Shown one piece after another: positions 4,901-56,553 of a stretch of DNA of 64,000 bases. The notes under the pieces were generated by a model. That model saw only the letters and a list, made by a program, of their open reading frames with translations, had not been told where the DNA came from and ran no database searches. Where the stretch lies: IMG/VR virus record IMGVR_UViG_3300038345_000076, positions 41,851 to 105,850 of that record, one strand, 5' to 3'. The first letter of the stretch is position 1, and every line of letters begins with the position of its first letter. The stretch is from a virus (taxonomy: Duplodnaviria > Caudoviricetes). The position numbers and the translations under genes are program-made.

Positions 4901-5392
4901 TTAGAGATTTAGCATCTTGTCAAGCCAAGTCGATTCGTCGATGATGTCGGCCATAGCATAGTAGTATTTGCCACTGGCTTTGTCGTAGAGATATTGACCG
5001 TAGAAAGTCATTGTCGTACACTCTCCGATAAAGAACATTGAATAACGCTCGTTACGAATCCACCTCTTAGGCGGCAAAACATTCAGAGCATAGTCGTATT
5101 CTTCCTGAGTTATCTCCTTTGGCTCTTTGCTCAACCACTTATCACGCTGGAGTTTGCAATACTCTTCCCATGTAACGGCACGGAAGCCGGATTGGAGAAT
5201 CTTTGTAACTTTTTCAAGTTGAAACTGCCAGTGGTCTGACATGTTAGGATAGTTTACGAGGTGGCTTTCATACAAAGCCTTGTCTTTCTCATAAAACTCC
5301 TTTGCACGTTCGATGTTGGTACTAACTTCAGATTCCTTGCAAGTGGTGAAGCAATCAAAATACGCATTGTTGATAATCAATAAATCTTCCAT
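4901..5392 (-). CDS. DUF1419-like protein
   Basis: EITQEEYDYALNVLPP...F..GE motif; start moved to MEDLLII. Confidence 0.55.
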   Translation of the reverse strand: MEDLLIINNAYFDCFTTCKESEVSTNIERAKEFYEKDKALYESHLVNYPNMSDHWQFQLEKVTKILQSGFRAVTWEEYCKLQRDKWLSKEPKEITQEEYDYALNVLPPKRWIRNERYSMFFIGECTTMTFYGQYLYDKASGKYYYAMADIIDESTWLDKMLNL

Positions 5393-5451
5393 AATAGTTT
5401 GAATTTTAGTGATACATTGCAGTCGTGGGAGTTTTGAGGCTCCCATGACTT

Positions 5452-5928
5452 TTAGAGTTCGATCTTGATGTCATTCCACTCTTCCGGCAAAGTTCTAATC
5501 TGCTGCAGAATGTAGTCAACAATCTTGCGGTCGTAGATGTAGAAATGCCAAGCGTAAGAACACTCTCTCAGATTCCCGATAAAGACCCAGCAATTCGTTT
5601 CTTCAGCCCAATAAAGATTTACGCCGATATGACGGTCAGGCGTGTAGCCGTTCTTTCTAATGAAGTCGAATCGCTCTGCAATAGTGCAACCAGGCTGATA
5701 AGATGAAGGAATGTTGCAGTCAACGTACTTGTAGCCAGTCTTTCGGAAATACATCAATCTAACCGCCATTTCGTGACGCGAAAGTACTTCGTATTTCTTT
5801 GCGCATTTGTCGATGCGATGGAAATACGATTTCACTCCATTAACAACCACAAAGTAATCTGTGTAGTTTCTGTCTTCACAATTCCAACGTGAAAACTGCT
5901 TGTAATCGTTCTTGATAATCTGTACCAT
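5452..5928 (-). CDS. Hypothetical protein (158 aa)
   Basis: ORF track. Confidence 0.7.
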   Translation of the reverse strand: MVQIIKNDYKQFSRWNCEDRNYTDYFVVVNGVKSYFHRIDKCAKKYEVLSRHEMAVRLMYFRKTGYKYVDCNIPSSYQPGCTIAERFDFIRKNGYTPDRHIGVNLYWAEETNCWVFIGNLRECSYAWHFYIYDRKIVDYILQQIRTLPEEWNDIKIEL

Positions 5929-5991
5929 GATAATTGAATTTTTGTTAATTATAGTTTTGTCAGTCAGAGAGTTTTCAGGCTCTCTGAGAGT

Positions 5992-6228
5992 TTAGGCAAC
6001 CTTGCGAAATACTTCTTTCAAACCTTGTTTGGTGTACTTCAAGACCTTAACAACATTCAGCCCTAAATCTTTCCAAGTCGGAAACTCTTCGAGTGCTGCT
6101 GCAACCGCTTCTTTGTTGTTCTTGAAAATTGCAGGACTGCTAACAGATGGCGCATCGTCTTCCGTGCAATACTCTACACGATAGTTTGGATAATGCTTGC
6201 CGTCATAGTCAAAATTGAATTTGTTCAT
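5992..6228 (-). CDS. Small hypothetical protein
   Basis: Start moved to MNKFNF after the A-rich leader. Confidence 0.65.
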   Translation of the reverse strand: MNKFNFDYDGKHYPNYRVEYCTEDDAPSVSSPAIFKNNKEAVAAALEEFPTWKDLGLNVVKVLKYTKQGLKEVFRKVA

Positions 6229-6308
6229 AATCTTTTGAATTTTGGTAAAAATAGTAGGTGCTTCCATCAATCAAAATGGCCGCACCCGAACACACTAAAA
6301 TTAGCAAA

Positions 6309-6479
6309 CTATGAATGTTGTGCCGTTCCAAACCATTTGCGACTGAAATCGTCGGAATCTTTGCAGTTGAAAACTATTCCGATACACTTACGATTCTGTT
6401 TCGCAAACTCTTCACGTTTCTTTAGAAACTCTTGCTCGGTTATTGGCTCGTATGGAGCCATCACATAGTAGTTAACCAT
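6309..6479 (-). CDS. Small hypothetical protein (56 aa)
   Basis: Own translation MVNYYVMAPYEPITEQEF...; ATG follows the 6496-6531 hairpin unit. Confidence 0.55.
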   Translation of the reverse strand: MVNYYVMAPYEPITEQEFLKKREEFAKQNRKCIGIVFNCKDSDDFSRKWFGTAQHS

Positions 6480-6533
6480 AATCTTTTGATTTAATTTCGT
6501 ACTTTGGGGAGTTGCAACGCTCCCCGAAAGTGT

Positions 6534-7193
6534 TCAGGCACACATTCTTTCGATGTTCTCACGTTTCTTGGAAACTTTGAAGCGGTACACCCAACGATGG
6601 TCGGAAAACTCATTGTAGTATTCTATTCCGCGCTCATCCATCAAACTCTTTACGTCGGCAATATTCTCTTCTGCATGGAAGTTGTAGAAGACCCAAACAC
6701 CGATACCGTAAGTGGTGGGATAGACCAAGAACCGATTGTTATAGCCGCGTTCCTTGCAAAGTCTTTGCATAGCCATCGCAAACTTTCCGTATGTTCCGGC
6801 ATAGACCTTGCGATCCTTCTCAACAAGTTTCTGGACGTACTCGACCGTGATGACTTTCGACTTGACGTTTTCTTTCTTGACAAGCATCTGACCGCCATCG
6901 TGCTCAACGTATAAAGTATCGTACTCGTAAGGTGATGCGTGACGTTCCCACGTCTGGTCTGCAAACTTTCGGCACTTTTCTTCAAACTCTTCCATCGACT
7001 CATAAAGTACGTTTGTTCTGCCTTCTTCAGTGGCTTTACTTCCTCGCACATTGTCTTTGTTGTAGTTGTAGGAAAAGTCGTACATTTCCTGCCAGACTCT
7101 TTTCTTGAACTCTTCGTAAGTTTCCTCTGGAAACCAACGTACATTGATACCCTGAACCTTCAGTGCATCAATAGTTTCTTTACTGATTCTCAT
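6534..7193 (-). CDS. Hypothetical protein (219 aa)
   Basis: ORF track. Confidence 0.75.
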   Translation of the reverse strand: MRISKETIDALKVQGINVRWFPEETYEEFKKRVWQEMYDFSYNYNKDNVRGSKATEEGRTNVLYESMEEFEEKCRKFADQTWERHASPYEYDTLYVEHDGGQMLVKKENVKSKVITVEYVQKLVEKDRKVYAGTYGKFAMAMQRLCKERGYNNRFLVYPTTYGIGVWVFYNFHAEENIADVKSLMDERGIEYYNEFSDHRWVYRFKVSKKRENIERMCA

Positions 7194-7252
7194 AATTGCT
7201 GAATTTTAAATGATTAGTCGTACTTTCGTGGAGTGTCACCTCCACAAAAGTC

Positions 7253-7930
7253 TTAGGCTGCATCCTCGTAGATGCCGTTGAACTCTGTGCCATCCTCATA
7301 ATAGAGTTTGTCAGGCCAGTTTGCGGAAATCATATCTCCAATAGATTCGTCTGACATTCTGTAATCATCTTCATCTGACCAAAGTCTCAGATAGTGATGG
7401 AAACAATCATCAAATAAATCGTGTAGAGATATGTTCCAATCGGGACTTTTGTACCATTCAAAGATTTTGTCTAAGATGTCGCAATCGTAGCACATTCCAG
7501 TAAACGGACAATCCTGCTCAACCCACCAGATATGAGAATAACGCTTGACGTGTTCCAGTCCGACAGGATGCTCTGAATCTTTTGCGTGAGGAACAAGTTT
7601 GCCGTAATACTTGCGGCTGCGAATGTCGTAGTAATACTTGTTGAGGAATCTCCAGAGATACTTTCCGCAAAGTTCCTCAGAGTTTGCGTCAAGTTCTGAA
7701 TCCTCAAAGTGCCAGGTGATGAAACGATACTGATGGTCATAGTCAATTTCATAGCGTATGCCAAAGACTTCGCAAAACTTATCCAGAGTGGCGCGTCTTT
7801 CATCTGCGTCTGTTTCTTGACAAATGTACCAATAGCCGTAAGTTTCTTCACGGTCACGTTCACAAACTTCGTGTTTCGCATCTTTCGACAACTCGTCAAA
7901 ATGATACAACTTTACAGTTACTTCTTTCAT
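7253..7930 (-). CDS. Conserved phage hypothetical protein (Y.FDELS..AK N-terminus)
   Basis: N-terminal LYHFDELSKDAK and C-terminal DYRMSDESI...YEDG pattern common in phage early proteins. Confidence 0.7.
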   Translation of the reverse strand: MKEVTVKLYHFDELSKDAKHEVCERDREETYGYWYICQETDADERRATLDKFCEVFGIRYEIDYDHQYRFITWHFEDSELDANSEELCGKYLWRFLNKYYYDIRSRKYYGKLVPHAKDSEHPVGLEHVKRYSHIWWVEQDCPFTGMCYDCDILDKIFEWYKSPDWNISLHDLFDDCFHHYLRLWSDEDDYRMSDESIGDMISANWPDKLYYEDGTEFNGIYEDAA

Positions 7931-7998
7931 AGTCTCATAATTTTAATGTGAATAATATCGTACTCTCCACGATTGCAACATCATGGAAAGTATTTTGA

Positions 7999-8133
7999 TC
8001 AGCACTTGTAAAGTGAGGGCTTGACGAATCTTATTCCGTCTTTCCAAAGTTCTGTACCTTTGCACTTTGCGCAAATCTCAGCAAACTTGCCGACAAATGG
8101 AAATCCCATCGGCTTGACAATTCTTCTTCTCAT
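7999..8133 (-). CDS. Small ORF (44 aa)
   Basis: MRRRIVKPMGFPF... exactly fills the space between two hairpin units. Confidence 0.5.
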   Translation of the reverse strand: MRRRIVKPMGFPFVGKFAEICAKCKGTELWKDGIRFVKPSLYKC

Positions 8134-8199
8134 AATTGATATACTTTTTATTGGTTAGTCGTACTTCCGACCATTGCAACAAGATCGAAAGCAAAAGTT

Positions 8200-8340
8200 T
8201 CAGAAACATAATCCAAGATTTTTCTGACAGATGAAAAACTTCTCAGCAGTAGCAAGCATCTTTTTTGTACCATAACCTTTCAGGTACAAAGTGTAAATCC
8301 GCTCAATCTGTGCGGAAATATCGCAAAAAGACTTTTTCAT
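8200..8340 (-). CDS. Small ORF (46 aa)
   Basis: MKKSFCDISAQIERIY... between two hairpin units. Confidence 0.5.
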   Translation of the reverse strand: MKKSFCDISAQIERIYTLYLKGYGTKKMLATAEKFFICQKNLGLCF

Positions 8341-8405
8341 AAAAACTCCTTTCCTTAAAGATTTTATCGTACTGCCAACAAACGCAACTTTGTCGGCAGT
8401 AGGTT

Positions 8406-8501
8406 TTAGATCTCAAAGTTTTCATAAACAAACTTTGCAGCGGCATTGAAATCGTTGCCGAAATTCTTAATCTCTCCGTTTGGTAATTCTACGTAATACA
8501 T
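8406..8501 (-). CDS. Small ORF (31 aa)
   Basis: MYYVELPNGEIKNFGNDF... between two hairpin units. Confidence 0.5.
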   Translation of the reverse strand: MYYVELPNGEIKNFGNDFNAAAKFVYENFEI

Positions 8502-8662
8502 AATTGAAACTTTTTTTGGTAAAACATTATCGTACTTTCAACAGTTCTAACACTATTGAAAGTAATAGCCCTCACGGGTTTCATAAAACACAATAACTAA
8601 AAACCTAAAACTAATATCGTACTGCCAAGAACTTTCACGTACTCAGCAGCCTGGTCGTACTC

Positions 8663-8872
8663 TCAAATCTCGTACTTTGTCACCTGAATGTTTATCTTCC
8701 AGAACTCCAGCCAGAACTTTCTGATTCTCGTACTGAACTTTGGAGAGTTCCAGACTAACACGGCATAAGCAATCGCAAAAGTTACATAAAGCAGACTATT
8801 GCAGCATAATGCCATGACGATGGGCGCAAGTATCAAAGTACCTGCAACGTAGATAAAAATTTTCTTTGCCAT
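8663..8872 (-). CDS. Small membrane protein
   Basis: Two hydrophobic segments. Confidence 0.65.
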   Translation of the reverse strand: MAKKIFIYVAGTLILAPIVMALCCNSLLYVTFAIAYAVLVWNSPKFSTRIRKFWLEFWKINIQVTKYEI

Positions 8873-8912
8873 AACTTGATTGAATTTTAGAAATAGAATA
8901 CCAAACTATTAG

Positions 8913-9380
8913 TCAGATAGTTTGGTATGCGAAAGACTTTGCAGCTTTGAAGTCAAAACCGAAACTCAACAAAGTTTCCTTTGATATGCGCAAGTCCTTC
9001 ATCTTCTCTTTCAGGCGCATAAACCAGTTGTCGCGTCTTTCGAGAAAAGAAAGTTTCTGTGATTCATCTTTGAATCCGTGAGAGAGTTCATCTTTCAGAT
9101 CCTCAAAGTCGAAACGCGCAAACTTGCAAACTCTTTCGACCATTGGAATAGAAAGCAAAGTATCAAGCGCAACTTTGTTGCCATATTCAGTCAACTTGTT
9201 ACGCGCATCATTGGCAAAGATCGGCTGAGAAACTTTTCTCGTACTCTGACTTTGCCAGTAGTTTTGTTCCTTCATCTTCAGGAAATTCCAAAACTCTGTG
9301 TAGGGAATCTTCTGATCGATGGCTTCACGCTCCCAATCTTCTAAGATTGAGGAGGAAATAAAAGTCTTTTCTTGTTTCAT
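8913..9380 (-). CDS. Hypothetical protein (155 aa)
   Basis: Start moved to MKQEKTF. Confidence 0.65.
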   Translation of the reverse strand: MKQEKTFISSSILEDWEREAIDQKIPYTEFWNFLKMKEQNYWQSQSTRKVSQPIFANDARNKLTEYGNKVALDTLLSIPMVERVCKFARFDFEDLKDELSHGFKDESQKLSFLERRDNWFMRLKEKMKDLRISKETLLSFGFDFKAAKSFAYQTI

Positions 9381-49871: not shown

Positions 49872-50156
49872 ATGAAGAGGATTTTAGATTGGTTCGCAGG
49901 AATAGAGAAGGACAAGATATTGCACGACGACATGGTGTTTAATATTTCCTTGCTTGCCGCTTGTGCATGCAGGCTGTTAGTCAGCAAGGAGTGGTATAAT
50001 ATAACCGCATGTGCTTTCTTCGCTGGCTTCATCGCAGGTGTGGCGAAGGAAATCTATGACGAGTGGAAGTACAAGGGTGCTGACGAGCGTGACTGGAAAG
50101 CCGACATCTGCGGTCTTGTGCGTGGCACTATATTCTCATTATTATTAACAATATAA
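49872..50156 (+). CDS. Small membrane protein
   Basis: DKILH...AKEIYD...DWKADICG with hydrophobic segments. Confidence 0.7.
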   Translation: MKRILDWFAGIEKDKILHDDMVFNISLLAACACRLLVSKEWYNITACAFFAGFIAGVAKEIYDEWKYKGADERDWKADICGLVRGTIFSLLLTI

Positions 50157-50170
50157 ACACAAAAACAATT

Positions 50171-50350
50171 ATGGAAAAGTACAAAGGATTCATTTATTTT
50201 GCTCTGATTTGCCTATATATCTTAGGCTCTATCGGAGGCATTGGTTATGCTTGCTACAATCACGCATACCTCATTGCAATCGGTGTGGCAGCCGTCGCTC
50301 TGATGGCTTTACCACAAGTTGTCAAATACTTTAAGGCTCTGACAGAATGA
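50171..50350 (+). CDS. Small two-TM membrane protein (59 aa)
   Basis: Own translation MEKYKGFIYFALICLYILG...; stop overlaps the holin ATG. Confidence 0.65.
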   Translation: MEKYKGFIYFALICLYILGSIGGIGYACYNHAYLIAIGVAAVALMALPQVVKYFKALTE

Positions 50351-50844
50351 TTGAACAGATTAAGAACATGGCGGTGGGGATAGTATTGGCTATCCTCGCC
50401 TACTTGGAGCCAATAGATGGAGAACTGCTAAGTCTTTTCGTGGTATTCTTTCTCAATTTCCTATTTGGCTACCTCTCTGGGATGGTTAAGGGTGAAGAGT
50501 TCTCGCTGAAGAAGGCTCTTGTGTGTGTCGGTCATGCTGCTGTATTCTTTATCCTCTGCGCTGCCGTCTATATCATCGGGCGATTGAAGGGGCAAATGGA
50601 AGGATCAGTGCAATGCGTGTCGTTCATCACCTACCTTGTTATATACTTCTATGCGCTTAATATCTTGCGCAACTGCAAGAAGATATTCAAGGACGAAACG
50701 GCACCTTGGCATGTAGTGAATACGATCTACTTCATCCTCCGCTTCAAGTTCATCGAGAAAATACCTTATCTGAATGAGTATCTCGATACACAGAAGCAAG
50801 AGGCAGTAGAGCAGAAAATTATTCTTGATAAAGACGATAATTGA
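50347..50844 (+). CDS. Holin (probable)
   Basis: Several TM segments, directly upstream of the endolysin. Confidence 0.7.
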   Translation: MIEQIKNMAVGIVLAILAYLEPIDGELLSLFVVFFLNFLFGYLSGMVKGEEFSLKKALVCVGHAAVFFILCAAVYIIGRLKGQMEGSVQCVSFITYLVIYFYALNILRNCKKIFKDETAPWHVVNTIYFILRFKFIEKIPYLNEYLDTQKQEAVEQKIILDKDDN

Positions 50845-50846
50845 TT

Positions 50847-51497
50847 ATGGAGATAACGCAATCACAATTACTAAGAGCCGTTCCTAACCTTAACAAATCC
50901 AAGGTGGACGAGTTTGTGGCATCATTCAATATGTATGCCATACATTTCGGTCTGACGACGAAGGCAAGGGTATGTCACTATCTTGCGCAGGTATTCAACG
51001 AGACTGGTGCTTTGAAGGCTACGTCGGAGAATATGAACTACTCTGCGGAGAGGCTTATGCAGGTATGGCCTTCACGCTTCAAGACGTTGGAGAAGGCGAA
51101 GGAGTATGCGCATAACCCTGAGAAACTGGCGAACAATGTCTATGCGAATCGGATGGGTAACGGCAACGAGGCATCGGGTGACGGATGGAAGTACAGGGGA
51201 CGGGGATATATCGGACTTACGGGCAAGAGTAACTATTCCGACTTCAACAGATATGATTTATGTACGGAAGATGTCTTGAAGAATCCAGACAAGGTAGCGG
51301 TCTATCCTCTCAACCAACTCTGTGCGATGTGGTTCTGGGAAAGGTATAGCCTCAATTCGATAGCGGACAGGGACACTGGAGGTACTGGCAGCGAGAAGAT
51401 CGTGGAGGAGATAACCAGGAAGGTCAACGGCGGTCTTATTGGAATATCGGAGAGGAAGTATTATTATAGACGTTTTGCAAGAACATTTGGCTTATGA
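50847..51497 (+). CDS. Endolysin, glycoside hydrolase family 19
   Basis: LAQVFNETG, ENMNYS, YRGRGYIGLTGKSNY, ITRKVNGG. Confidence 0.9.
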   Translation: MEITQSQLLRAVPNLNKSKVDEFVASFNMYAIHFGLTTKARVCHYLAQVFNETGALKATSENMNYSAERLMQVWPSRFKTLEKAKEYAHNPEKLANNVYANRMGNGNEASGDGWKYRGRGYIGLTGKSNYSDFNRYDLCTEDVLKNPDKVAVYPLNQLCAMWFWERYSLNSIADRDTGGTGSEKIVEEITRKVNGGLIGISERKYYYRRFARTFGL

Positions 51498-52015
51498 AGA
51501 AGTTACCAAACATACTGATATTATTGCTCATTGCTTCCATAGCGGTCAATGTGTTTGTCCTTACACGCAAGCCGAAGATGGATATTAAGCATGACACGAC
51601 GGAGGTAGTCAGATGGGACACCAACCATGACTCGCTGCCTCCAGAGAAGGGCGAGAAGATAGTGAAGTACATCCGCATCCCTTGTTCAAACTCTCCGCAG
51701 GATTCTTTAATAGGGGATAGTCTTATTCAAGATTCCGCATCCAATTCTTCAATAACGCTCCCTGTCGTCCAGAAAACCTTCTCCGACGACAGCACCTATA
51801 CAGCCTGGGTCAGTGGTCCGAAGGTGGATGCCTACCCGAAGCTGGACAGCATCAATGTGCGGCAGAAGATCATTGAACGGAACATCACCGTCACGCTGAC
51901 CGAGAAAGAGAAAGAGAGGCACTGGCGTTTCGGTCTTGGTGTCAATGCGGGCATCAGCGTCATCACAGGAAAGCCCGACATCACGGCAGGCTTTCAGGCA
52001 GGCTATACATGGTAG
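51494..52015 (+). CDS. Spanin-like lysis accessory protein
   Basis: N-terminal TM, C-terminal beta hairpin ending in an aromatic residue, after the endolysin. Confidence 0.55.
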   Translation: MKKLPNILILLLIASIAVNVFVLTRKPKMDIKHDTTEVVRWDTNHDSLPPEKGEKIVKYIRIPCSNSPQDSLIGDSLIQDSASNSSITLPVVQKTFSDDSTYTAWVSGPKVDAYPKLDSINVRQKIIERNITVTLTEKEKERHWRFGLGVNAGISVITGKPDITAGFQAGYTW

Positions 52016-52227
52016 AGAAAAAAGTTGTCTTCATATAATTAATAGTTTAGTATTTTCTGATTTTTAGACGTAACTGAAGTGGGCAAGCGTGCCTGCGCTC
52101 GTTTTTTTTAGTTTCATCATGGTATCAAATTTTTCATATCTTGAAGATTTTTAGTTATTTAACATTAGCACCCCATCCGTGAGGACATGGTGCTATTCTG
52201 GGGAATATATTTATAAATAATAATCAT

Positions 52228-52356
52228 AAAGAAATCCCCCGTCATAAATAAGTATCTCACCACATTATCTACGGACTTCCCACAGAGAGAAGCGGGGGAT
52301 TATGCCCTTTTTTCTCCCTGTGGGATAAATGTCTATTGTCCGCAATGTGGTGAGAT
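52228..52356 (-). ncRNA. Candidate structured ncRNA (long stem plus possible pseudoknot)
   Basis: Nested pairings 52254-66/52344-56, 52271-76/52338-43, 52278-90/52313-25; loop 52293-300 is complementary to 52234-41. Confidence 0.6.
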
Positions 52357-52361
52357 GGGTG

Positions 52362-52393
52362 CAAAGGTACTAATAAAAGTTGAACAAACCAAA
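52362..52393 (-). promoter_or_regulatory. Bacteroidetes promoter driving the ncRNA candidate
   Basis: TTTG-N20-TACCTTTG. Confidence 0.65.
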
Positions 52394-52402
52394 ATTTGCA
52401 CA

Positions 52403-52630
52403 ATGAAAGTAGTTGAGTTATTAAAAATAGGTGCTGAAACGTTAAAAATGATGTCACAGAATGGCATCTTTATTGACGATTGGAAATATGTGGAAGCCTA
52501 TGAACATTTTCTGAGGATGCGCGAATTGGGCGTAAAGTATAATGTTGCCATCAAGGAAGCGGCTAATGATCTTCACGTCACCAAGCGTACACTGCAACGA
52601 GCGTTCAAGCGTCTTTCAAAGGAGTGTTAA
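52403..52630 (+). CDS. Small HTH DNA-binding protein
   Basis: AIKEAANDLHVTKRTLQRAFKRL helix-turn-helix. Confidence 0.7.
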   Translation: MKVVELLKIGAETLKMMSQNGIFIDDWKYVEAYEHFLRMRELGVKYNVAIKEAANDLHVTKRTLQRAFKRLSKEC

Positions 52631-52693
52631 ATGGTGTCACGGATTGGCACTTGAAAGGCGTGTTTATCTATTGTTATCTGTTTTATAACTGGT

Positions 52694-52701
52694 TATCTTT
52701 G
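52694..52701 (+). promoter_or_regulatory. -7 promoter element for the 52766-56101 operon
   Basis: TATCTTTG with ATTG 20 nt upstream. Confidence 0.55.
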
Positions 52702-52765
52702 CATTGGTTTTTCGCGATAACCAGAAGAAACAATAGTATTAACAACTCAAACACAAGATTTCATT

Positions 52766-53380
52766 ATGGCAAATTTAGACATGAATGACTTGATGGCTAT
52801 CCGTGGTCTCGATCGCGAGTACGATCATGGCTATGGTTACGGCTATAACCGTGGTTACGGTATGTCGCCTTACGAGCAGATGAAGGTTAGCCACATGGCA
52901 TCCAAGCGTCCGAGCGGTGTAGCCGTAGCAGGTCTTACCGTTGGTGTGGTCGGTGCTGTGGCAGGTATCGGGGCGTGGATTTTTGGCGGTATGCAGGCCA
53001 ATGCCAAGGCAAAGGAAGCCGCTCAGATCGGCATCGCAGCAAAAGAACTTGCTGCTTCGCAGTATCAGTCATCCCTAAAACTGCTTGACGCAGAGCATGA
53101 CAACACGCAGAAGACCATCGACCGTATTCTTCGTGGTTTCGACACGGAGCGTCAGGAGCGTATCAATGGTGACATCACCCTGAACGCCACCATCAACGAT
53201 ACCGTCAGTGGTTCACAGCAGGGTACGCTCACTGCTTCACAGATTGCTCAGCAGGAGGCTACTCAGTCAGTAATGGCAGGTCTGATGACTGGTCGTTACA
53301 GCGAGAATCCTCTGAAGGTGGTACGTGTGAGCGGTCAGCGCGAGTGCCCTTGTGACAGCGGTTGCGGTTACAACGGCTAA
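52766..53380 (+). CDS. Gly-zipper membrane/coiled-coil protein with Cys-rich tail
   Basis: YG repeats, GVAVAGLTVGVVGAVAGIGAWIFGG, ends CPCDSGCGYNG. Confidence 0.75.
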   Translation: MANLDMNDLMAIRGLDREYDHGYGYGYNRGYGMSPYEQMKVSHMASKRPSGVAVAGLTVGVVGAVAGIGAWIFGGMQANAKAKEAAQIGIAAKELAASQYQSSLKLLDAEHDNTQKTIDRILRGFDTERQERINGDITLNATINDTVSGSQQGTLTASQIAQQEATQSVMAGLMTGRYSENPLKVVRVSGQRECPCDSGCGYNG

Positions 53381-53448
53381 AGAAACGTAGGGTCTGATTG
53401 GGTACGGAAATCGGACTTTTTCAGACCCTACATTAAAGACACGGCAAA

Positions 53449-53808
53449 ATGTTATGGTTCAACAAAGAAAAGAAAAAGAAGATGGAGTTTATTCAGAATT
53501 ACGTACCGACGAGCAAGGCACAGCTATTACAGGTGGCTATGTTCTTTAACAAAGGTGACTTGCAGAAAGCGCAGGAAATGTTTGACTTCTACGCAAAGAA
53601 TCTTCAGTTACCAGACTTTGACCCTGTTGCACCTACATTCATGCAGCAGGTGAAGAGTAACGCAACAGACTTCTTTTCATGGATTAAGGAGAATCGGGAA
53701 GATATCGTAAACGGGTATGAGTTTGTTCGCTCCATCATCGCAAACAAAGGAGCAATTCCTCCTGTAGCGCAAGAGGTGTCAGATCCTCTACCACCGATCA
53801 ACGAATAA
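53449..53808 (+). CDS. Hypothetical protein
   Basis: ORF in operon. Confidence 0.7.
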   Translation: MLWFNKEKKKKMEFIQNYVPTSKAQLLQVAMFFNKGDLQKAQEMFDFYAKNLQLPDFDPVAPTFMQQVKSNATDFFSWIKENREDIVNGYEFVRSIIANKGAIPPVAQEVSDPLPPINE

Positions 53809-53851
53809 ATATTCAGGTATTTTTAGGTACAAAACTTAACACGGCAAAAGT

Positions 53852-54070
53852 ATGGATGAAAAGAAAAAACTCAAAGGTTTTCCGCTTACTTTCAATATCT
53901 ATGCGGAAAATGAAACAGAGGTTGAAGAGTGCCGGATGGCTATTATTGCTTTTATCGGTTTACATGCTTCACAATGCAGGGCTGTCACTGCAAAAAAAGT
54001 GGCACATGCGATAGGTAACTGGGATAAGAACCCAATAGTAAAGAATCAGATAATCAATTATTTCAAGTAA
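53852..54070 (+). CDS. Hypothetical protein
   Basis: ORF in operon. Confidence 0.65.
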   Translation: MDEKKKLKGFPLTFNIYAENETEVEECRMAIIAFIGLHASQCRAVTAKKVAHAIGNWDKNPIVKNQIINYFK

Positions 54071-54071
54071 T

Positions 54072-54389
54072 ATGGAACAGACGAATCAAAATCAAGAACA
54101 GCAGTTTCGCTGTACTGGTGACTGCATCAAGTGTAATCGCGCACAGAGGGAATATTGCGGCGCACAGAAAGGCTACGACAACTGGCTTTTGCTTCTGGAA
54201 ATGCAAAAGACACTTTCCGCTATGTCTGGAACGGTAGAAGATCTGAAGCATAAGGTTGCCGCCATTCAGGACAACGAGGCAATGGTATTTGACCCGAACA
54301 ATGATTCTCCTGCTGTCATACAACAGCATACGGTACTGATGGAAGGAAAAACAAGTGAAACAGCACAAGAAGGGGACGGTGTAGAATAA
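54072..54389 (+). CDS. Cys-motif coiled-coil protein
   Basis: CTGDCIKC...YC followed by a heptad helix. Confidence 0.7.
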   Translation: MEQTNQNQEQQFRCTGDCIKCNRAQREYCGAQKGYDNWLLLLEMQKTLSAMSGTVEDLKHKVAAIQDNEAMVFDPNNDSPAVIQQHTVLMEGKTSETAQEGDGVE

Positions 54390-54430
54390 TAGAATCCCCA
54401 AAATAATTCACAACACAAAAACTAAACTTT

Positions 54431-54886
54431 ATGGCTTGTAACAACAATGGAAAGACATTTGTGGTCTCATTGACTACGGTGCCAGGCGGTACAGCCGCCA
54501 ACGCCAACTATCTGTTGGCTCTTGACCACTACACTTGTGGTAATCGAAAACTATGCTCTCAGGGTGAGGTGTTTCCCGTAACAGCGGACTTGAAGGCTAC
54601 TGCTATCGGTGCTCCTGTCGATGTCGGCAACGGGACATTCTGCCAGGAAGTGCTTATCAGCGGCACATGCACCTACATGCCTTTCAAGTGCGGGTGCCAG
54701 TGTCAGTGCGGTGTATGTCCTGTGACGGACAATATCTATTGTACCATTTGTGTGCCTTGTTCTTCGGCAGCTACACCAACTCTTACCATCGGCAATTCCG
54801 TGGCTTCTCCCACGAACGTACAGCCGTGTAACAATGTAACGAACTGCGTTGCCATTACGACTACGCTCAACGTGACAACTGCGTAA
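54431..54886 (+). CDS. Very Cys/Thr-rich beta protein
   Basis: About 14 Cys in 151 aa (KCGCQCQCGVCP). Confidence 0.75.
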   Translation: MACNNNGKTFVVSLTTVPGGTAANANYLLALDHYTCGNRKLCSQGEVFPVTADLKATAIGAPVDVGNGTFCQEVLISGTCTYMPFKCGCQCQCGVCPVTDNIYCTICVPCSSAATPTLTIGNSVASPTNVQPCNNVTNCVAITTTLNVTTA

Positions 54887-54889
54887 GGT

Positions 54890-55252
54890 ATGGAATGGAT
54901 TGATATTGCCTGCATCGTAATTGCTTGTACTGCCGCTAATCACCTTGGACTGATATCGGCCATGGAAGATGTGATAGGCAAAAGAATCCCTATAGTGAAT
55001 TGCTGCAAATGTGCTTCGTTCTGGTCAGTGCTGATTTACGGATGCTATCATATATCAGCATACGGGACTTGCAGTATAGTAACGGTGCTTGCAATATCAT
55101 CCCTCTGTGCATACTCTGCAATATGGCTTGAACTTATAATGGGAATAGTGGACTATTATTACAATAAGGTATATGGGAAGATTTATACAACCTCAGACAA
55201 CGCGGCTACCTCAGATACAGACGCGAGTGATTCCGCAGGCACCGTGTCCTAA
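54890..55252 (+). CDS. Membrane protein with CxxCxSFW motif
   Basis: NCCKCASFWSVLI; several TM segments. Confidence 0.7.
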   Translation: MEWIDIACIVIACTAANHLGLISAMEDVIGKRIPIVNCCKCASFWSVLIYGCYHISAYGTCSIVTVLAISSLCAYSAIWLELIMGIVDYYYNKVYGKIYTTSDNAATSDTDASDSAGTVS

Positions 55253-55298
55253 TTGTAGGAAAACTACAAGGAACGGGGTTAGACGAAAGGTAAAATAA
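55173..55298 (+). CDS. Small basic peptide with CPNC (41 aa)
   Basis: Own translation MGRFIQPQTT...APCPNCRKTTRNGVRRKVK; overlaps the previous gene. Confidence 0.4.
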   Translation: MGRFIQPQTTRLPQIQTRVIPQAPCPNCRKTTRNGVRRKVK

Positions 55299-55337
55299 GA
55301 TTTCGCTTATTATAGTTTTAATCAAAAAAGTAAAATT

Positions 55338-55820
55338 ATGACACCAGAAGAAATGAAAAAAGAGTGGATCGCCCTCTACAATATGATGGCGAACTCACAT
55401 GATGTTTCCTTTATGCGCATTTTTGGAAATGTTCATAAGGAAATGATGGAGTGGATGATTGCCAATAAGCCTGAACTGGCACAGGAATGGCTTGACAAGT
55501 TGGAATCTATCAAGTGGAACAACTATCTTACCTCTAAGGAGGCAGAGAAGATCTTGGCAAACATGATGCCAAAGGCACCTTGGGCTAAAGATGTGTGGAA
55601 GCAGGCAATGAATGAACATGGGTTTGAACTCTCTCATGAGCCATGCTATAACTCTTGCGCACTCTGGGTTGCTATGAACATGATCATGTCCGACTCTTCA
55701 GAGACTTTGAAGAAGTATGTGGCAGAAGAAGATATGTTCAAGGCCGTTCATGATCTTGCGGTTGACAAGCTGAAGGATAAAGACGGTGTGTTCAACATTC
55801 GTTCATACTTTGGTGTGTAG
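55338..55820 (+). CDS. Helical hypothetical protein
   Basis: YNSCALWVAMNMIMSD...LAVDKLKDKD. Confidence 0.75.
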   Translation: MTPEEMKKEWIALYNMMANSHDVSFMRIFGNVHKEMMEWMIANKPELAQEWLDKLESIKWNNYLTSKEAEKILANMMPKAPWAKDVWKQAMNEHGFELSHEPCYNSCALWVAMNMIMSDSSETLKKYVAEEDMFKAVHDLAVDKLKDKDGVFNIRSYFGV

Positions 55821-55825
55821 AGTCT

Positions 55826-56101
55826 ATGCCATATCGTGAGTTGATGCGTAGGAAACTCCTGGAGCAGATATATGATAAGATGTCTGACGAAGAGAAGCGT
55901 ACCTTCGTTCAACTCACGTTGCAGGACAGAGACCATCGTGAGATTATGGATGCTTTGCAAAAACAGCAGATTCAGATCAGTAGGGTAGTGGAAAAGGTTG
56001 AAAAGCAAAGTTTCGCATTGGACTTTGGAAGTGATATCCTTGCCAACTTTACTACGGACGGTCTGATATGGCTGGCATCCAAACTTTTCAGAAGACGATA
56101 A
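55826..56101 (+). CDS. Hypothetical protein
   Basis: Last ORF before the terminator. Confidence 0.7.
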   Translation: MPYRELMRRKLLEQIYDKMSDEEKRTFVQLTLQDRDHREIMDALQKQQIQISRVVEKVEKQSFALDFGSDILANFTTDGLIWLASKLFRRR

Positions 56102-56123
56102 CCATCACTTGCCGTGTTGGTTT

Positions 56124-56153
56124 GGAGCGGGCTTTCACCCGCTCCTGTTTTTT
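56124..56153 (+). terminator. Intrinsic terminator
   Basis: GGAGCGGG-CTTTCA-CCCGCTCC followed by a T-tract. Confidence 0.75.
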
Positions 56154-56253
56154 CTCACACATCCCTCATAAGGTGATACATAACATTCATTATCTTTTTT
56201 CTGATACCAAAAACGTTTAGTTGGTTTAAGACATTTATCTTCTATTTCCACTT

Positions 56254-56553
56254 TCATGCCTCTTCTCCTTTCTGTACTACTTTAAGACCAAATTCGTAGA
56301 AATGTTTAGCAATATCTATAATATCTGCCCTTGACAATGAGTAAAAACCTTGATATTTATCTTCTACTAAATCTATTTCCTTCTCCAACTCCATGTCTTT
56401 CACTTCGAGGGTGTTGATGAAATCATCCTTTAAATCTTCAAGTGCAAATATAAGTCCATCGTGATAAGAATCATCTATCTTATATGACTTATAATCTTCA
56501 ATTCTCTGGTTTATCTCCGCTACTAAAGCGGATTTTGATATATACTGTTCCAT
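56254..56553 (-). CDS. Hypothetical protein
   Basis: YISKSALVAEI N-terminus, paralogous to 58390..58572. Confidence 0.7.
   Translation of the reverse strand: MEQYISKSALVAEINQRIEDYKSYKIDDSYHDGLIFALEDLKDDFINTLEVKDMELEKEIDLVEDKYQGFYSLSRADIIDIAKHFYEFGLKVVQKGEEA

Follow-up and report, generated by a model that had tools for sequence, protein, structure and literature searches.

A mobile, self-regulated ten-gene operon encoding small cysteine-rich and membrane proteins in Bacteroidales phages

Organization of the cassette

The DNA analyzed here, referred to as the window, is a stretch of 64,000 nucleotides that makes up the final 64 kb of a 105,850-bp phage record in IMG/VR (IMGVR_UViG_3300038345_000076, rated 100% complete). 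At positions 52355 to 56155 it carries a block in which a regulator gene (g0) and a promoter with an inverted repeat precede nine co-oriented genes and a strong terminator. The nine genes are g1 to g8 and g6b, an overlapping gene for a CPNC peptide, so that the block contains ten genes when g0 is counted; all of its genes and signals are on the plus strand. The block is a mobile, accessory, self-regulated operon of Bacteroidales phages and is under selection. An initial annotation had placed a self-contained, separately regulated operon here, and each part that it named, namely, a helix-turn-helix (HTH) gene, a palindrome, a promoter element, co-oriented genes, and a terminator, is present.

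The small regulator encoded by g0 (52355 to 52630) has a C-terminal HTH, and a start at 52403, giving a protein of 75 amino acids (aa), is the likelier one. Residues 17 to 91 match phrog_17790 (E = 1e-7), matches to Pfam HTH families are weak, and at least 18 loci have an ortholog of 75 to 99 aa ahead of g1. The product of g1 (52766 to 53380; 204 aa) consists of a 45-aa N-terminal domain with an MSPYEQ N-terminal motif, one transmembrane (TM) segment of the Gly-zipper type at approximately residues 50 to 75, a coiled coil rich in Ala, Lys, and Glu, and a tail with four cysteines, which ends in CPCDSGCG in the window protein and has the consensus PCxCPxxGCGCNG. The gene is syntenic in 25 loci. 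The initial annotation had characterized this protein by a YG repeat, a Gly zipper, and a coiled coil; it is present as described, but the YG repeat is a lineage-specific insert carried by only 3 of the 25 orthologs and was dropped as a defining feature for that reason. A helical protein with an invariant LPDFDP motif and a C-terminal PLPPINE is encoded by g2 (53449 to 53808; 119 aa, or probably 108 aa from the second Met), and a small alpha/beta protein of 72 aa by g3 (53852 to 54070), the stop of which lies 1 nucleotide ahead of the g4 start. In the g4 product (54072 to 54389; 105 aa), a CX3CX2CX7C knuckle is followed by a coiled coil and an acidic tail of the AQEGDGAEE type. The four cysteines of this knuckle, with a spacing of CX3CX2CX7-13C, are invariant across 23 sequences, and the length of g4 ranges from 65 to 121 aa.

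The most constrained protein of the block is encoded by g5 (54431 to 54886; 151 aa). It is a predicted all-beta sandwich (AlphaFold model all-beta, with a predicted local distance difference test [pLDDT] score of 85) and contains 15 cysteines, the approximately 14 given at first being one too few. It belongs to a small family, which amounts to 59 clusters (50% identity) in a set of 1.84 billion proteins, and almost every member stands alone; two database proteins (P0049 and P0053) look chimeric, with the C-terminal part of g5 fused to other sequence. A 130-aa antisense open reading frame (ORF) inside g5 (54551 to 54943, minus strand) is most likely spurious, as it has no support and sits opposite the most constrained gene. 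The 120-aa product of g6 (54890 to 55252) has three TM segments, the conserved motifs ANHLGL and AIWLEL, and a CxxC that opens the second TM segment. Overlapping the 3' end of g6 in the +1 frame, g6b (55173 to 55298) encodes a 41-aa peptide in which TRLPQ...IPQAPCPNC is followed by a basic tail. The CxxC membrane protein, the CPNC peptide, and the CxxxCxxC coiled coil of g4 had all been recognized in the initial annotation. The all-helical, 160-aa product of g7 (55338 to 55820; AlphaFold model all-helical, pLDDT 89) belongs to the family DUF7841 and is the most widespread component of the block. It exceeds the gathering threshold of PF25223 (56.9 bits against a cutoff of 25.2; E = 3.1e-15); the family comprises 1,795 clusters of sequences from public metagenomes, all 120 of the relatives listed carry PF25223, and a search for longer proteins with g7 fused to other sequence was negative. 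The last gene, g8 (55826 to 56101), encodes a helical protein of 91 aa with a hydrophobic or amphipathic C-terminal segment, SDxxANxxTDGLIWL. No paralogy was found among the products of the block, and its G+C content, both overall and at third codon positions (GC3), equals that of the late genes.

Distribution and sequence conservation

IMG/VR was scanned with g5 and g1, which yielded 28 loci, and gene content was compared by tblastn with all products. The co-occurrence of these genes in other genomes, on which the initial annotation had made its reading depend, was borne out: gene order is identical in almost all of loci L002 to L029, which are rumen and gut phage contigs of 41 to 144 kb sharing 30 to 98% identity. 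In a second scan, in which species-representative genomes were searched with g7, the block was located in metagenome-assembled genomes (MAGs) of Prevotellaceae and Bacteroidales and in the cultured isolate Prevotella sp. tc2-28. In the latter, the entire 82,463-bp contig NZ_FNRE01000014.1 is the genome of a phage with the cassette (rated 100% complete), which may exist outside the chromosome or be actively replicating. The isolated Bacteroides phage BS162P1 (OP172706.1, a partial record), the host of which is B. salyersiae, carries the same gene series, with all of the genes annotated as hypothetical.

Between the window and the other loci, identity at 4-fold-degenerate sites is 0.27 to 0.46 per gene, which is near saturation, whereas amino acid identity is 0.44 to 0.72; all eight genes are therefore under purifying selection. 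Constraint is highest in g5, with a mean amino acid identity of 0.72 against a 4-fold-site identity of 0.38. Recent transfer was ruled out as the cause of this high identity, as the synonymous sites of g5 are saturated like those of its neighbors. The g6b ORF is present in 27 of 27 loci, encoding TRLPQ...IPQAPCPxC and then a basic tail, and is also found in BS162P1. Where the two genes share nucleotides, the g6b reading frame averages 55% pairwise identity and that of g6 averages 34%, and g6 has the highest 4-fold-site identity of the block (0.46), an elevation that dual coding predicts. On these sequence comparisons, the CPNC peptide gene is a real, conserved gene.

Departures from the common gene set were also observed. 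In a provirus rated complete (IMGVR_UViG_3300026549_002518; L015, positions 5644 to 7348), g0 leads directly into g5, g6, and g7, without g1 to g4 or g8, and g5 to g7 may be a separable submodule. A variant cassette was identified on the chromosome of Segatella copri HDD04 (L036, positions 5252 to 8954) and in an Alistipes MAG (L049, positions 5878 to 8462). It consists of an HTH_17 gene, a g1-like gene for a Gly-zipper and coiled-coil protein with a Cys-rich tail, genes for a 165-aa coiled coil and a protein of approximately 140 aa, and g7; it lacks g4, g5, and g6 and directly adjoins holin-like and endolysin genes. The g1 TM region is the best-conserved link to the S. copri variant (hhalign probability of 91%; E = 1.2e-6) and the sole portion of g1 that the variant shares. 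A g5-like module in the C-terminal tail of the g1-like protein from S. copri was considered and ruled out (hhalign probability of 1.4%). Four contigs with a Segatella-type g7 (L037, L038, L042, and L046) are filed under Firmicutes MAGs (Waltera, Bacilli, Oscillospiraceae, and Lachnospiraceae) and are probably phage contigs that were misbinned in metagenome assemblies.

Position in phage genomes

The cassette moves as a unit among numerous Prevotella and Bacteroides phages with no other relationship to one another, and it does not occupy a fixed position. It lies 3' of the lysis genes in the window and 5' of the lysis genes in two other loci (L006 and L007), and in L020 it is placed between a tail-chaperone-like gene and a giant tape-measure-like gene, the equivalent of 30179/30190 in the window. 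It also adjoins the giant tape-measure-like gene in L008 and L014 and a tyrosine recombinase gene in six loci. Two complete relatives of the window phage with direct terminal repeats, G004 (109.8 kb) and G006 (105.4 kb), have major capsid proteins 77 to 78% identical to that of the window phage; profiles of g1, g5, and g7 found no match in either, while three positive controls matched. In G006, the lysis genes run directly into the leftward operon. Carriers of the block include proviruses as well as four complete genomes that lack a tyrosine recombinase match, and no such match was found in the partial BS162P1 record; restriction of the block to temperate phages was ruled out on this basis. 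From the two relatives without the block, the G006 junction, and the recombinase-free carriers, it follows that the block is dispensable, is an insertion in the window phage, and is not bound to lysogeny. It was also considered whether the block is a nested satellite or integrative element, and this was ruled out: the unit, as bounded by comparison with L020 and G006, is g0 to g8 only and contains no integrase, replication, or packaging-hijack domain.

The flanks of 32 loci encode integrases, reverse transcriptases of diversity-generating retroelements (DGRs), holins, several endolysin types, Flg_new_2 repeat proteins, methylases, and glycosyltransferases. Within the flanks of L002 to L035, DGR reverse transcriptases were counted in 3 loci, tyrosine recombinases in approximately 6, and Flg_new_2 in 8 ORFs, and the block tends to neighbor systems for the diversification of receptor binding. 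Just 3' of the near-identical cassette in L002 (positions 7744 to 8088, minus strand), a 114-aa protein with an RNA polymerase alpha C-terminal domain is encoded (PF03118; E = 3.7e-14), a gene that is unusual for a phage.

Promoter, operator-like repeats, and terminator

The promoter ahead of g1 is marked by the Bacteroidetes -7 element TATCTTTG (TAnnTTTG; 52694 to 52701), the position of which is kept in all 19 aligned g0-g1 spacers. The bare TAnnTTTG motif is not enriched across the window (61 observed against 53 expected). Inverted repeats are found at the -7 box (52689 to 52724): an outer pair, CTGGTTATC and GATAACCAG, which is perfect over 9 bp and brackets the box, and an inner pair, TGGTT-N9-AACCA (52705 to 52723). 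An inverted repeat begins 1 to 6 nucleotides 3' of TTTG in 19 of 19 spacers, and its arms vary by clade yet stay complementary, being TGTCA-N8-TGACA in most loci, GGATATCC/GGATTTCC in another clade, and TGGTT-N9-AACCA in the window. Judged from this pattern of sequence covariation, the repeats probably serve as an operator or a 5' leader hairpin.

Just past the g0 stop lies an imperfect palindrome, GTGTCA-CGGAT-TGGCAC (52634 to 52650), with 5 of 6 positions complementary. By itself, it is within chance expectation. A hairpin occurs at the equivalent spot just past the g0 stop in five other loci (L002, L006, L016, L024, and L025); the palindrome includes a TGTCA-type half-site, and TGTCA/TGACA half-sites are located near the promoter in most other loci. 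It is considered a candidate operator or RNA hairpin. The pairing of an HTH gene with an inverted-repeat, operator-like promoter is that of the operons controlled by anti-CRISPR-associated (Aca) regulators, the operator here being a candidate. The block is closed by an intrinsic terminator (56124 to 56155; hairpin at 56124 to 56145) with eight pairs, seven of them GC, and a T-run, which faces convergent leftward genes.

Cysteine motifs and membrane segments

Among the ORFs of the block, only g1 and g6 encode TM segments, none of the ORFs in 52355 to 56155 has an N-terminal signal or lipobox, and the Cys-rich proteins g4, g5, and g6b have no signal peptide. The net charge of g1 is +1.8 ahead of the TM segment and +1.0 past it, so that the positive-inside count weakly favors a cytoplasmic N terminus. 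Loop 1 of g6 is probably cytoplasmic, given its net charge of +1.3.

The cysteine sets of g1, g4, and g5 are invariant or nearly so. In g5, C36, C71, C91, C96, and C107 are invariant, and the divergent clade retains a CxxC-X10-CxxC core; distant relatives of g5, including that of BS162P1, retain only approximately 7 to 8 cysteines. The CxxC of g6, at the start of the second TM segment on the cytoplasmic side, is at least 95% conserved, and the CPxC of g6b is found in every locus. Paired CxxC or CxC knuckles of the kind that build four-Cys sites were thus recognized in g1 (PCxC...GCGC), g4, divergent g5, g6 (CxxC), and g6b (CPxC). Grouped as they are into four-Cys sets, on proteins that are not exported from the cytoplasm, these cysteines are more likely to be metal knuckles than to form disulfides.

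Family, fold, and function searches

Searches of Pfam, PHROGs, PADLOC, and NCBIfam with all products returned nothing beyond DUF7841, phrog_17790, and, in the neighboring gene, DUF6808, and the statement of the initial annotation that no enzyme is recognizable holds for all four databases. Defense models in PADLOC-DB 2.0 gave chance-level matches alone (best E = 0.006). Neither g1 nor g6 had a holin family among its matches, with E values admitted up to 1 in Pfam and up to 0.1 in PHROGs, and only the topology of the two proteins is holin-like. Despite its invariant CX3CX2C, g4 gave no match to Radical_SAM and is just a knuckle and a coiled coil. Profile searches of the PDB with g1, g2, g3, g4, g5, g7, and g8 returned nothing but chance matches and generic coiled coils, the latter being all that g4 matched among PDB sequences. 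When the g5 and g7 models were compared with the PDB and BFVD by Foldseek, nothing was significant (best E = 0.03 to 1.3). By VIA, the highest Z scores were to unrelated small domains, at 4.4 for g5 and, over 52 residues only, 5.2 for g7; an HSP20/CS-like fold for g5, suggested by the Z score of 4.4, is within noise. In the ESM Atlas, g5 had no match, and g1 matched only viral hypothetical clusters. A literature search found no mention of DUF7841 or BS162P1, and a paper on the cultivation of Bacteroidaceae phages contained nothing relevant. Nothing characterized resembles the block, and its sole named relative is a domain of unknown function, DUF7841 (PF25223), a functionally uncharacterized family that covers one of the ten genes.

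Source phage and neighboring genes

The window belongs to a tailed phage of the Bacteroidales type, which encodes an SPP1-type portal, a terminase, a GH19 endolysin, and a tyrosine recombinase with the Bacteroidetes Arm-DNA-bind_5 domain. A search of deposited phages at the DNA level found no matches for the window, and nothing was found in Rfam over 51900 to 56400. Upstream of the block, positions 49872 to 52015 encode a plausible full lysis set of small membrane proteins, GH19, and DUF6808, the last identified by a Pfam match to the gene at 51494 to 52015, in the position after the endolysin. A terminator-like hairpin with a T-run (52079 to 52109; hairpin at 52079 to 52099; plus strand) closes the lysis operon and forms the left edge of the inserted block. 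No plus-strand TAnnTTTG was observed ahead of g0 between 52100 and 52400, the nearest being on the minus strand at 52362 to 52369; it is possible that g0 is transcribed by read-through from the lysis operon.

Discussion

We propose that the g0 HTH protein, together with a host-type promoter overlapped by an inverted repeat, would govern nine small genes, the products of which would assemble as a single complex fixed to the cytoplasmic membrane of the host. It would be anchored by g1, with its Gly-zipper TM segment and coiled-coil stalk, and by g6, with its three TM segments, and four-Cys metal knuckles would attach the soluble proteins g4, g5, g6b, and g7. Split zinc sites are known from the CxxC hook of Rad50 and the CD4-Lck clasp, and CPxC(G) is the classic rubredoxin knuckle; by likeness of motif only, the CxxC of g6 and the CPxC of g6b would each be half of a four-Cys site, so that one metal site may be split between the two proteins. 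Such a complex would govern the permeability of the inner membrane during infection, either to time lysis or to close the membrane or cell to rival phages, and would be neither a virion part nor a disulfide coat. That the products form one membrane-anchored complex is somewhat more probable than not, as their genes are inherited together and translationally coupled, two of the genes overlap, and two of the products could act as membrane anchors. A membrane complex had been offered as an alternative in the initial annotation, and it is plausible, given that both g1 and g6 span the membrane and that the TM segment of g1 is conserved as far as the variant cassette. The whole proposal, in which this complex controls permeability for lysis timing or exclusion, is put forward tentatively, its chances lying somewhat below even. 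Within the 6 to 8 kb fetched on each side, an endolysin gene is present in 6 loci of the type A cassette, one of them in the window, and in 7 of the 12 loci with the variant or with g7 only; from this proximity, the conserved Gly-zipper TM segment of g1, and the holin-like layouts of g1 and g6, control of permeability would be a guess by analogy.

The known systems closest to this proposal each share only some of these features. In holin T of phage T4, a cytoplasmic N terminus leads into a single TM segment and then a large, cysteine-containing C-terminal domain, and the protein is bound on each side by small soluble partners. The layout of g1 resembles that of holin T, which acts with the antiholins RI and RIII, by analogy only and with no sequence match; the lysis-inhibition genes of T4 are scattered rather than gathered in an operon, and the window phage has other holin candidates. 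Two-component spanins (Rz/Rz1) comprise a membrane-anchored coiled coil with C-terminal cysteines and are often encoded beside lysis genes. While g1 likewise has one TM segment, a coiled coil, and C-terminal cysteines and often has lysis genes for neighbors, the block encodes no outer-membrane lipoprotein partner, g1 has a 45-aa N-terminal domain, and DUF6808 already occupies the position after the endolysin. Exclusion modules of the lambda rexAB type and Aca-controlled operons are accessory, have their own HTH regulator, and encode membrane and soluble products. The block shares these properties, with an operator-like inverted repeat over its promoter, but has no homology to them; it consists of nine fixed genes, as opposed to one to three or a variable set, and its regulator lies upstream rather than inside the operon. 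The variable, unrelated cargo of Aca-type operons is also not seen, as one set of eight to nine genes recurs in a constant order at almost every locus.

Several observations weigh against the proposed membrane complex or its function. No component matches a holin, antiholin, spanin, exclusion, or defense family, and the phage already has a plausible full lysis set (49872 to 52015). The adjacency to lysis genes could reflect a mere accessory hot spot shared at the end of the late region. If the g1 tail were periplasmic, its metal sites would not be shared with cytoplasmic partners, and the provirus that keeps g0 and g5 to g7 alone implies that the set may be two submodules.

A narrower form of the same idea, in which the block is an extra lysis module with g1 and g6 as holins and the remaining products as regulators of the antiholin type, is unlikely. 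Holins of class III and class I provide models for the layouts of g1 and of the three-TM g6, respectively, the variant cassette adjoins lysis genes in L036, L038 to L041, and L049, and in L044 g7 alone lies directly upstream of holin and amidase genes; however, neither protein matches a holin family, separate holin-like genes and an endolysin are already present, and most type A loci have no lysis gene within 3.5 kb. The HTH gene, the inverted repeat over the promoter, the small orphan proteins, and the accessory distribution would also suit an anti-defense or host takeover island, in which independent small proteins each bind a host target under an Aca-like autorepressor and form no single complex; the conserved g2 and g4 tails, PLPPINE and AQEGDGAEE, resemble docking peptides. 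Counterdefense islands differ in content, whereas the order of the eight to nine genes here is constant among Prevotella, Segatella, and Bacteroides phages whose synonymous divergence is saturated, and the translational coupling and the overlapping gene point to co-assembly rather than to independent proteins. This explanation is slightly less likely than that of a lysis module.

Equally improbable as an anti-defense island is a virion-associated accessory set, whether of ejection or pilot proteins with a Gly zipper that enter the host membrane or of decoration proteins, with Cys knuckles stabilizing small domains. The block sits inside the tail operon ahead of the tape-measure-like giant in L020 and beside the giant in L008 and L014, its base composition is that of late genes, and the g5 model suggests a compact, highly constrained beta-sandwich. 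Against this, two complete relatives with a similar capsid (77 to 78% identity) do without the block, which has its own host-type promoter, regulator, and terminator and varies in location, and the g5 and g7 models match no virion protein. The initial annotation had suggested, as one speculative possibility, a disulfide-cross-linked coat or occlusion-like matrix that would set on exposure to oxygen after lysis of an anaerobic host. Such a coat would accord with the Cys density of g5 (15 of 151 residues), the further Cys clusters in g1, g4, g6, and g6b, and the fact that the hosts are strict anaerobes. The conserved cysteines, however, are in four-Cys or CxxC knuckles of the metal type and are not scattered over a surface, and the Cys-rich g4, g5, and g6b have neither a signal peptide nor a TM segment. 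Distant g5 proteins, including that of BS162P1, keep only about half of the cysteines counted in the window protein (approximately 7 to 8), no repeat or self-assembly signature was found, and complete relatives dispense with the block. Nor did the Foldseek and VIA searches with the g5 and g7 models bring up any fold of coat, occlusion, or capsid proteins. A disulfide coat is therefore very unlikely.

The membrane-anchored complex that we favor can be given a more specific form, which is highly speculative and would rank only above the disulfide coat in probability. The block would then encode an inner-membrane machine of a new type, built by the phage from orphan folds clasped together by thiolate metal sites between subunits, in which the oxidation of approximately 30 cysteines couples redox state or oxygen exposure to membrane permeabilization in strictly anaerobic hosts, with lysis timing or abortive exclusion of rival phages as the output.

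Prevotella, Segatella, and Bacteroides are the dominant genera in communities of the rumen and the human gut, and their phages are poorly understood; lysis control, exclusion, and counterdefense are essentially uncharted in phages of Bacteroidetes. Nine of the ten block proteins have no family, fold, or function assigned, despite being maintained by selection across phages of 41 to 144 kb. As the block is carried by BS162P1, which with B. salyersiae forms a cultured phage-host pair, and by a cultured Prevotella isolate, the question of what it does is directly testable.

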